Counted from the first letter of the stretch, positions 51,001 through 54,000 are shown. The stretch: DNA of 64,000 bases from Escherichia coli (GCF_011045215.1 NZ_CP049201.1); one strand, 5' to 3'. A program made the numbers.

Positions 51001-54000
51001 GCGCTGGAGGTGATGGTGGTGCTGGTCACCGCCTGCGGTATGTTGCTGTTGCTGGCACAGGTGCAGGTGGGAATGCGTCAGCGTCATCAGGAGCTGGTGG
51101 TGTGGCGCACACTCGGTGCGGGGAAAAAACTGCTGCGTACCACGTTGTGGTGTGAGTTCGCCATGCTTGGGTTTGTTTCCGGCCTGGTGGCCGCAATTGG
51201 TGCGGAAACGGCACTGGCAGTGTTGCAGGCGAAAGTGTTTGATTTTCCGTGGGAGCCAGACTGGCGATTGTGGATTGTTCTGCCGTGCAGCGGTGCGCTG
51301 CTGCTGTCGCTTTTCGGCGGCTGGCTGGGCGCGAGACTGGTTAAGGGTAAGGCGCTGTTCAGGCAGTTTGCGGGGTGATGAGAGGTGTTAGATTGCCTGA
51401 TGCGCTACGCTTATCAGGCCTACGAAGAGCGTGCAATATATTGATTTTGCAAGATTGTGTAGGCCGGATAAGGCGTTTACGCCGCATCCGGCATGAACAG
51501 TGTGCATTTTGGCAATAAATCTGAAACCAACTGTCATGTCGGTTTTTTTATATCTGTATTCTGGTGCAACCATTCTGTTCTCACGACAATCGCCGTTTCA
51601 GAATACCGCCCATCACTGCGCCTTAACCCATTCCGCCACTTCCGCCCACTCACCGCGAAAGACAACTTTTTCCGCTTTTTTCTCAAGCTGATAGCGATAC
51701 ATCGGGTCGTAATATTCTTCAAGTAACGGCACCAGCCAGGCCAGATGACCGTCGGTGCTGCCGGTGGTGAGTTGCGTTGTCAGTGCTGCATCCAGCCTTG
51801 CAGCCAGTTCGTTATAGCGTTGTAGCCCCAGCCGACGCTTAATAGCCGAAAGTCCGTGATGCAGGTATTCGCAATACTCCTGCCAGCCCTGTTCGTCGCC
51901 GTACGCGTGGGTAAAATCATGATGCATACGCAAGAAATACTCTTCGTTCAGGCGCTCAAGACGGATCTCAAACGGATCTTCTACCACCGCAATCGCCGCC
52001 TGAGTCATTCGCTCGCGCAGGCATTCCGGCAGGTGATTCGAACCGATCATCCGGCTTTCGTCTTCCAGCACCCACAGGCGCAAATTCTGACGGGCGTCGG
52101 TTTTTAGCATTTCGGCAGCCAGCAGGTTTTCAAAACTCGCCTGGCTAAGTTGTGGTTGTAAGGTGCGACCAAACGCCGAACCGCGATGACGCGCCAACCC
52201 TTCCAGATCAACACCGTTCGGCTGTTGCTGCACTAACAGCGTTTTACCGCTGCCGGTACAACCGCCAATCAGCACTATCGGTTTTTGTGCCAGTTCAATA
52301 GTCGCCTGAATCGCGGTCTGGCGCAGTGCCTTATAACCGCCTTCCACCAGCGGATAATCAATCCCCGCTGCATGCAACCAGCTTTGCACAATATGTGAGC
52401 GCTGACCGCCACGGGCGCAGCAGAGAATACCTTGCGGATTTTGCAGGCACGCTGCCCGCCAGGCGTCCATGCGCTGCTGACGAATTTCACCCGCAACCAG
52501 TTTATGTCCCAGCGCCAGCGCTGCGTCTGAGCCTTGCTGTTTATAGCAGGTGCCAACGGCGGCGCGTTCATCGTTATTCATTAACGGCAGATTGATAGCG
52601 GCGGGCATTGCGCCTTGCTCAAACTCGATAGGGGCGCGAACATCAATAATGGGCGTATCAGCAATCAGCAGGGCACGATAGTCCTGTTCCGTGTGTCTCT
52701 CTTGCATAGTTAAAAGTGAACCTCAAATCAGCTTGCGCGCTATTTTACGCGCCAACGCGCAAGGAAACTTGATTTTTAACTGCGTGGGTTGCCGAAAATT
52801 TCTAAAAATCCGCTGATTTCCGGCCTGCGCTGGGTAAACAAGGTCACAATATCTTCTACCGCTTTGCCGCTGCCAAATTTGCGCCATGCCAGACTCAATG
52901 GCGAAGGAGGGCGCATCGTTGGGATTACCCGGCTGACTAGTTGTTGATTATCGATCATTGACTGGCAAAGTGATTTTGGCAAAAAACCAATGCCAACGCC
53001 CGCCAGATGGGCGGCGATTTTCGTTTCCATATCGGGAACAATAATCTCTTTTTGCCCTGGCAATCGCCAGGCGACGCGTTTGGTTAAGGTGCGGGCGCTG
53101 TCTTCAATATTGACCGCCGGAAAGCGCCGCAACTGCGCTTCTGTTAGCGGCTCTTCAACGCTCGCCAGCGGATGATCCGCCGCCATGACAAATCGCCATT
53201 GCACCGATCCTAAGGGATCAAGACTAAAGGTATTTGCCAGCGCCTCAGTTCCCGTGACGCCGATAGCCAGCGAAAAACCTTCGTACAATAGCGAGTCCCA
53301 GACGCCCATATAGATTTGTCGGGAGATGTGAAACTGGGTAAAGGGGTAACGCTCATTCAGCCACGCGAGCAACTGGGCGACGGCCTGGGGGTTGTAGAGC
53401 AGGTTGTTGATGACAATATTCACTTGGCGTTCCACGCCATCATTCACCTGTTGCAGCTCGCTTGGCATACTTTCCAGCCAGCTCAGCCAGTCTCTGGCCT
53501 GGGAAAGTAGATGCTCGCCAGCCGCTGTCAACGTCACGCTGCGAGTCGTACGGAAAAACAGCGCTACTCCGGTATTCTCTTCCAGAAGTTTAATGCGATA
53601 ACTGATCGTCGCCGTGGTTTTACATAATCGTTCTGCCGCTTTTGAAAAACTTCCTGTTTCAGCAACCGCAATGAAAGTCCGCAAGGTTTCTGGATCGAAC
53701 ATCTTCAGGTATCCCCTTTTAAATCCGCAAGTTGCGTGATTTTCTTATCCTCTGATTTATCAGTATTTTTACATGATAACCCTGTTCAATTTGTGGACTA
53801 AATCTAGTTTTGGAAAAATATTCCAACTTTTGTATTGATGTTGTTCTCTTAAGGTTTTAGATTGCCTGTTATTGAAACCAAGCTGACCGGTCGGCGCTGG
53901 TTGAACGGAATTATGTTACAAGGACAAAGAGATGAAACTTCAGGTATTACCGTTAAGTCAGGAAGCCTTTAGTGCTTATGGCGACGTAATCGAAACGCAG

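Follow-up and report, generated by a model that had tools for sequence, protein, structure and literature searches.

Organization of the ybbP–mnmH junction

The window analyzed here is a 64-kb stretch (64,000 nucleotides) of Escherichia coli DNA (GCF_011045215.1, NZ_CP049201.1). Within it, ybbP, which is predicted to encode an ABC transporter permease subunit, and mnmH (also named selU), which is predicted to encode a tRNA 2-selenouridine synthase, are convergent, and the spacer from stop codon to stop codon (51379-51612) measures exactly 234 bp. The genes ybbA, tesA, and ybbO lie upstream of ybbP, and allS lies past mnmH. The MnmH C-terminus reads KAQ in the window and KAR in K-12, and it is 4 aa longer in alleles that carry an Hcp island. 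We found no protein and no recognizable sRNA in the 234-bp spacer. The original prediction had described a gap of about 230 bp with two REP palindromes at 51393-51495, which agrees closely with the spacer length and with the REP limits in Table 1.

Table 1. Coordinates of the flanking genes and spacer features at the ybbP–mnmH junction, counted from the first nucleotide of the window.
Feature	Coordinates	Strand	Evidence and remarks
ybbP (ABC transporter permease subunit), left flank	48964-51378	+	804-aa ORF; NCBIfam NF041854, 1458 bits, cut-off 999
15 nt 3' of ybbP stop	51379-51393		Sequence comparison
z1-type REP (TGCCTGATGCGCTACGCTTATCAGGCCTAC)	51394-51423	+	Pattern search; predicted fold −13.2 kcal/mol, z −3.3
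L-type BIME-1 linker, 35 bp	51424-51458		Exact match to IHF consensus WATCAANNNNTTR at 51434-51446, − strand
y-type REP, inverse orientation (GTAGGCCGGATAAGGCGTTTACGCCGCATCCGGCA on +)	51459-51493	−	Pattern search; predicted fold −20.9/−21.3 kcal/mol
13 nt (TGAACAGTGTGCA)	51494-51506		Common to the ATCC 25922 bare BIME-1 allele and E. albertii; alignment
92-bp segment	51507-51598		Absent from bare BIME-1 alleles (...GTGCA/CAGAAT..., slash at the junction); read as joined module ends; alignment and virtual deletion
Solo terminator-like hairpin (AAACCAAC-TGTCAT-GTCGGTTT) with T7 run on +	51524-51550		
Single copy of ACTGTCATGTCGGTTTTTTTA	51530-51550		21-bp repeat that flanks the module in other strains
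14 nt preceding mnmH stop codon	51599-51612		Common to bare BIME-1 alleles, small indel; alignment
mnmH/selU (tRNA 2-selenouridine synthase), right flank	51613-52707	−	364-aa ORF; NF008749, 757 bits

The REP pair

For both REPs, folding predicts an imperfect but stable hairpin (about −13 and −21 kcal/mol, z −2.4 to −4.9), and none of 200 shuffles of the y REP was equally stable. Against Rfam, the REP region gave REP-derived partial matches only: the first hairpin of the y REP partially matches the REP-derived family naRNA4 (40.4 bits), and the linker with the adjoining REP edge scored 35 bits against ES036, a linker-derived model, just under its gathering threshold of 37.6. Among the matches listed, the REP part of the junction query occurs at a median of at least 38 places per E. 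coli genome. The IHF consensus was found twice in the window against 1.55 occurrences expected, which is not significant alone; the match counts solely through its position in the linker, and the site is a predicted one.

The assignment of the two REPs as z1-like and y-like draws partly on the consensus sequences of these types and partly on the published description of BIME-1. In that description, a BIME-1 joins a z1 and a y REP, in single copy, through a long linker that often has an IHF site (PMC3333891). Judged by its sequence, the pair in the window is a BIME-1, with a z1 REP, a linker matching the IHF consensus, and an inverted y REP. It shares with the BIME-1 (RIP/RIB) elements of E. 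coli the inverse arrangement of z1 and y, the single copy, the long IHF-consensus linker, and the location at the 3' ends of transcription units; there is no structural difference, although IHF binding here is predicted only. The BIME-1 in the window is a single unit, and the alleles of L001, L003, and E. albertii have extra z2/y units. From what is described of REP and BIME biology (PMC3333891), the REPs would fold into stem-loops at the 3' ends of the ybbP and mnmH transcripts, these stem-loops could by analogy guard the mRNA or attenuate read-through, and the linker may bind IHF.

Allele census of the junction

We used junction-specific BLAST queries to classify the junction in 5426 complete E. 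coli genomes; the counts depend on the BLAST coverage thresholds. A K-12-type ybbP/Rhs left junction was identified in 2878 genomes, so that Rhs is present at the junction in about 53% of them, and a ybbP/Hcp-effector junction, which marks an Hcp-Tle1 type VI effector island, was identified in 574. A short spacer, with ybbP and mnmH no more than about 1.2 kb apart, was found in 1868 genomes, and the junction of 106 genomes was unclassified. The Hcp island of ST131 comprises a gene for a 667-aa Hcp-Tle1 fusion and, after it, four DUF2931 genes, and the same cassette family is present in E. whittamii and Escherichia sp. MOD1-EC7003.

A module of roughly 480 bp, annotated as dinQ by PGAP, is present in about 1327 genomes (about a quarter), 1125 of which contain at least 80% of it. 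By subtraction, roughly 540 genomes have module-free short alleles with REPs only; examples are ATCC 25922, with a bare 140-bp BIME-1, and FDAARGOS_1284 and E. albertii, with a BIME-1 and additional z2/y units. The exact junction state of the window, defined as an uninterrupted match to a 115-bp query (51486-51600, E-value cut-off 1e-35), was found in 4 of the 5426 genomes: PapM-32-1, LR-28, AR_0077, and GF131. The window itself comes from a genome other than these four.

Composite alleles with both Rhs and the module were suspected in about 200 genomes that matched the relic or the module in part; of the two that were inspected, one has an ordinary module-bearing allele and the other a truncated module. 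A contig from an “Alistipes” bin with an identical MnmH was E. coli DNA with an island-type allele.

At least five allele classes occur at the junction in E. coli, and other Escherichia species and genera have more cargo there. The suggestion that this neighborhood is a hotspot of accessory-gene flux holds for the junction within Escherichia, where Rhs, Hcp-Tle1, the DinQ-like module, REP arrays of variable length, and the putative scar described below share one interval.

The DinQ-like/AgrB-like module in relatives

In module-bearing alleles, the 92 bp of the window are split by a further 477-478 bp. This module encodes a 27-aa peptide (MKTFLDKVLIVLKALIALLELIRQFIE) that matches the DinQ family (NF041472) with 40.9 bits against a cut-off of 30. 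The adjacent plus-strand RNA matches Rfam AgrB (RF02891) with 53.6 bits against a gathering threshold of 40; this match ends at the right-hand repeat/terminator hairpin, so that the right-hand copy of ACTGTCATGTCGGTTTTTTTA is its 3' end. Two copies of the 21-bp repeat (27 bp with one mismatch) bracket the module. By family membership, we assign the insert in relatives as a genuine DinQ/AgrB-type type I toxin-antitoxin module. In O157:H16 Res13, 186 bp are deleted between a second repeat pair (TGCTAGATGAGGACTG, the antisense-target repeat), and in TC_EC10 the toxin ORF is 5'-truncated.

Genes of this dinQ-like (dql) type were described as a family by Kristiansen et al. 2016 (PMC5066626), and the main text of the dinQ papers does not name the ybbP–mnmH locus. 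Like dinQ-agrA/agrB in the gor-arsR spacer of K-12 and like the dql family, the module in relatives combines a DinQ-family peptide with an AgrB-family RNA. The arrangement differs: the ybbP–mnmH module has one agr-like gene with terminator repeats on both sides, whereas K-12 has agrA and agrB in tandem, on one side. The hairpin in the window and its neighboring bases also resemble the 3' ends of agrA and agrB; however, both the toxin ORF and the antisense RNA are missing from the window, and because only one terminator and what read as two module ends are left, it cannot function as a toxin-antitoxin system.

The 92-bp segment and its hairpin

The hairpin in the 92-bp segment is predicted to fold with −6.3 kcal/mol on the plus strand, where it has an A·C mismatch, and with −8.5 kcal/mol on the minus strand; the G variant present in AR_0077 reaches −12.3 kcal/mol. 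The terminator scan called the minus strand only (8 pairs including G-T, with a weak tail), and the plus strand, with its A·C mismatch, went uncalled despite the T7 run. With its A-run and T-run, the remaining hairpin is a candidate for a weak bidirectional terminator.

We aligned the segment to the K-12 agrA 3' end with 12 nt of downstream sequence. The local score was 22, whereas 1000 dinucleotide shuffles gave 11.9 ± 1.7 and all stayed below 22; the shuffles do not preserve the hairpin-plus-T-run architecture, and part of the score is generic terminator resemblance. The likeness to the agrA and agrB 3' ends takes in about 15 preceding nucleotides, the hairpin, and 12 nt beyond the T-run. 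Because the segment resembles the K-12 agrA/agrB 3' end, including these 12 nt past the T-run, it is best read as module-family sequence and not as native spacer. Only 34 bp of module sequence, corresponding to the terminator, match the window. No match to the DinQ-family toxin ORF was found in the window, and a permissive search (E ≤ 10) of 51330-51660 with the Rfam AgrB model returned no match, not even a partial one, so the putative scar is unrecognizable to this model.

Probable deletion from a module-bearing allele

We consider it quite probable that the 234-bp spacer is one allele of a junction at which strains exchange spacers as complete units, that it consists of two layers, an old BIME-1 and a 92-bp DinQ-like/AgrB-like scar, and that the K-12 rhsD island is an allele of its own in which the spacer is replaced entirely. 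As to the direction of the event, the 92-bp segment probably arose by deletion from a module-bearing allele. In other genomes, the module sits between 21-bp direct repeats that are two copies of the terminator hairpin; repeat-to-repeat recombination or replication slippage would have removed the 477-478 bp between these copies, and it would leave one hybrid terminator without the toxin or antitoxin gene. The anatomy, the allele counts, the exact collinearity after virtual deletion, and the family membership of the module in relatives are direct results, and we infer deletion in preference to insertion, the mechanism, and any activity of the terminator or of the IHF site.

In AR_0061, ST540, O157:H16, Z0117EC0116, and Escherichia sp. 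E1V33, all of which have the module, we carried out a virtual deletion from one repeat to the other (five to six module-bearing haplotypes were compared in all). In all five alleles, the product had the exact length of the window over 3.3 kb, with no other indel. The left repeat copy follows AAACCA and the right copy follows AAACCG in each of the five, and the window, PapM-32-1, and LR-28 have AAACCA, the left-copy variant, as expected from a crossover inside the 21 bp. Furthermore, the relic state occurs on two spacer haplotypes, and each is nearer to a different module-bearing haplotype than it is to the other. The haplotype of the window and PapM-32-1 has two differences from the module-bearing haplotype of E1V33, and in the haplotype of LR-28, AR_0077, and GF131, four of six to eight differences are common to Z0117EC0116. 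The existence of partly deleted modules (Res13 and TC_EC10) also counts in favor of deletion. The spacer flanks in the window are equally close to those of the module-bearing L001, K-12, and other relic genomes.

The spacer resembles the solo relics left by direct repeats, such as solo LTRs, in that one hybrid repeat copy stays while the interior is lost, and in that this recurred on different haplotypes. It differs from them in that the repeats are only 21 bp long and are terminator hairpins instead of element termini, and there is no mobility function.

Some observations count against deletion. The divergent Escherichia L009, whose mnmH is 7% different, has a single hairpin with a perfect stem (the G variant), and this could be an old pre-insertion state. 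The G variant is also present in two of the E. coli relic genomes, AR_0077 and GF131, which under the deletion model would need either a mutation after the deletion or a crossover confined to 5 nt of homology. In addition, few haplotypes were compared, and SNPs around an indel can be reshuffled by recombination.

These observations bear on the opposite direction of change, in which the spacer in the window would be the ancestral unoccupied site of the DinQ-like module, and the module would have entered at a resident terminator, for example as a single-crossover circle with one terminator copy, thereby creating the 21-bp repeats. We regard this scenario as unlikely. It accords with the single-hairpin state of L009, the divergence of which matches that of its flanks, and with the perfect stem of the single-copy G variants in AR_0077, GF131, and L009, as expected of an original bidirectional terminator; moreover, integration and excision via the repeat are mechanistically symmetrical. 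However, this state is seldom seen in E. coli (4 genomes versus 1327 with the module), the two relic haplotypes each match a different module-bearing haplotype, and the A variant, which is characteristic of the left copy in all five module-bearing alleles, is the one present in the window. The hairpin and the 12 nt downstream are like the repeat units of K-12 agrA/agrB, which points to a module origin, and the bare BIME-1 alleles of B2 E. coli and E. albertii lack the entire 92 bp. A non-replicating circle of about 500 bp would also be an improbable vector.

Absence of Rhs and ancestry of the spacer

Rhs presence/absence polymorphism in E. coli is long established. The original prediction placed rhsD between ybbP and selU in K-12, and the K-12 genome bears this out: the two genes are not adjacent in K-12, and the 7301-bp interval between them contains rhsD, ybbC, an rhs fragment, ybbD, and a ylbG fragment. 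The K-12 RhsD element thus occupies this same junction, whereas the window lacks the rhs core, tip, ybbC/ybbD, and IS fragment throughout its 64 kb. We identified no rhs, Hcp-effector, or dinQ coding sequence anywhere in the window, and searches of it with K-12 RhsD (tblastn) and with the whole K-12 island (blastn) gave nothing below E = 2. In the full-text literature searched, no account of empty sites was found for ybbP and rhsD.

Homology to the K-12 Rhs allele stops at 51384 (the BLAST end point), six bases past the ybbP stop, and restarts within about 10 nt of the mnmH stop, at 51611 based on BLAST; inspection by eye shows 14 matches in 17 bases starting at about 51602. The K-12 island replaces 51385 to about 51602-51610, and no spacer sequence of the window is shared between 51385 and about 51602. 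In the Hcp-island allele, the left divergence occurs about 4 nt before the K-12 Rhs limit, and the right limit falls inside the last two mnmH codons, which accounts for the longer protein. Based on these breakpoint positions, the Rhs and Hcp island alleles each replace the whole spacer, including the BIME-1. Since the Rhs allele has neither the BIME-1 nor the 92-bp segment, a simple Rhs deletion cannot give the spacer found in the window.

The BIME-1 is common to all short alleles, to phylogroup B2 E. coli, and to E. albertii, and for this reason it is taken as the older state. This distribution indicates that the BIME-1 spacer is an old, never-Rhs state that predates the split of E. coli and E. 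albertii, and that the spacer in the window descends from an ancestral Rhs-free spacer. The junction had been described as either the ancestral empty site or a clean loss. The first part stands insofar as the spacer is of an Rhs-free ancestral type, with the BIME-1 of E. albertii and B2; it is not empty, as it contains the 92 bp read as module ends, and a clean Rhs deletion is excluded.

A history in which the lineage once had the rhsD island, and then lost it through clean deletion or through homologous replacement by an imported Rhs-free allele, appears improbable. The mnmH of the window differs from that of K-12 at 7 of 1095 nt, and the ybbP 3' end differs at 37 of 2000, so close relatives at this locus carry Rhs. 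The window is collinear with PapM-32-1 over 32.5 kb at 98.66% identity, and the spacer is common to both; the two are identical over 368 bp (51335-51702) against a background that is 1.3% diverged, which suggests recombinational import of the spacer. Flank distance matrices and mismatch profiles versus K-12 and PapM-32-1 revealed no clear recombination breakpoint. Simple deletion is excluded, however, with the BIME-1 and the 92-bp segment wholly missing from the Rhs allele, and the 64-kb window has no trace of rhs. Recombinational replacement and vertical descent are indistinguishable in these data, and either way the present allele is of the Rhs-free ancestral type.

It is highly improbable that the 92-bp segment is instead native spacer, namely a resident bidirectional ybbP/mnmH terminator that B2 E. 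coli and E. albertii have lost by deletion and that resembles agr only generically. In favor of this reading, bidirectional terminators between convergent genes are common, the hairpin has both an A-run and a T-run, and the shuffle control is lenient for terminator-like sequence. Against it, the similarity runs past the hairpin and T-run (TGGCAA-TAAA / TGGAAAGTAAA upstream and A-ATC-G-ATTC downstream), the AgrB-like terminator of the neighboring module has an identical stem and loop, and the segment is missing from the simplest alleles of the deepest-branching lineages sampled.

Significance and comparison with other genera

The spacer in the window is an ordinary strain polymorphism, and all of its components are known element types. 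Variation in REP/BIME elements, in dinQ-like modules, and in whether Rhs is present is documented among E. coli strains and matters little alone; the only additions here are the recognition of the 92 bp as a probable toxin-antitoxin scar and the rarity of the exact allele. For annotation, the spacer should not be treated as a blank Rhs attachment site, loss of Rhs via deletion is excluded, and the 92 bp are probably a type I toxin-antitoxin relic. With five allele classes in one PCR-sized interval, the locus could be a compact marker of lineage or recombination. If the deletion reading is right, the junction would also illustrate, in nature, the loss of small toxin-antitoxin modules by way of their own terminator repeats.

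A broader proposal is that the spacer is a dedicated exchange site, in which three toxin systems unrelated to each other (the Rhs polymorphic toxin, the Hcp-Tle1 type VI effector with a DUF2931 array, and the DinQ-like type I toxin) would alternate as mutually exclusive alleles between the stop codons, and in which the terminator repeats around the small toxin module would provide for its excision, time and again returning the site to a state, like that of the window, in which it can be used anew. We consider this proposal very doubtful.

The convergent ybbP/mnmH pair is conserved across other genera, with spacer lengths between about 60 bp and 5 kb. These spacers do not support a toxin hotspot across Enterobacteriaceae, as their content elsewhere is not toxin cargo: in Citrobacter, Kluyvera, and Kosakonia, the spacer has genes of ordinary GC content (a methionine-type ABC transporter set and a 377-aa ORF), and in Buttiauxella noackiae it has a low-GC GGDEF gene.

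Alternative contents of the ybbP-mnmH junction

At the ybbP-mnmH junction, about 1327 (~24%) of the complete E. coli genomes carry a module that encodes a DinQ-family toxin of 27 amino acids together with an AgrB-family RNA; this module is absent from the window. The ybbP-mnmH module is a second chromosomal dinQ-type locus, separate from the gor-arsR locus of K-12. In about 200 genomes, <80% of the module is present. Within the module of O157:H16 Res13, 186 bp are gone between two TGCTAGATGAGGACTG repeats and the toxin ORF is still intact; this loss removes the region where both promoters would be expected to lie. 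The module of TC_EC10 has lost ~100 bp, including the toxin start. In 574 E. coli genomes, the junction instead holds a phospholipase effector, an Hcp-Tle1 fusion, with two to four DUF2931 genes after it, and the right end of this island alters the final codons of mnmH, such that the product is 368 amino acids long versus 364.

Examples of ybbP-mnmH junction contents in the compared loci
Feature	Genome	Locus	Coordinates
DinQ/AgrB module		L002	2080-2790
DinQ/AgrB module		L092	2894-3605
Partly deleted module	O157:H16 Res13	L094	2894-3419
Partly deleted module	TC_EC10	L096	2829-3432
Hcp-Tle1 + DUF2931 island	ST131	L091	7083-11979
Hcp-Tle1 + DUF2931 island	E. whittamii, Escherichia sp. MOD1-EC7003	L011, L012	

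Two contigs from assemblies outside Escherichia, L044 (under the label uncultured Alistipes sp.) and the 394-bp L084 (Trinickia soli), encode E. coli MnmH with 98-100% identity, and they are most likely E. coli contamination of those assemblies. Aligned to the window, L044 matches at 98.9% up to position 51611, beyond which its divergence resembles that of an island allele.

Possible recombination around the spacer

The window and PapM-32-1 are identical across 368 bp centered on the spacer (51335-51702), whereas the surrounding 32 kb differ by 1.3%; the G at position 51382 was found in these two sequences alone. Such identity would fit the exchange of a short segment by recombination, one that bears the scar allele with its probable 92-bp remnant of the module. 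The DinQ/AgrB module also occurs in the spacer of Escherichia sp. E1V33, where both spacer and module are near-identical to E. coli alleles; leaving the module aside, this spacer differs from that of the window at two places. However, the E1V33 mnmH is 5.6% divergent, beginning near window position 51664. This pattern suggests recombination across lineages, with a breakpoint just within mnmH.

Other features of the window

A REP pattern scan located about five y/z2 REP pairs in tandem at 8490-9030, with a 101-bp period; this array looks like a BIME-2 array. The window is collinear with PapM-32-1, and the PapM-32-1 stretch that corresponds to about 31487-42200 is annotated with the 3' part of SiiEA (a giant adhesin related to BapA), an ATPase for type I secretion, an HlyD adaptor, cueR, and a YadA C-terminal-domain protein. 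The two adhesin insertions mentioned in the original prediction presumably correspond to these features.
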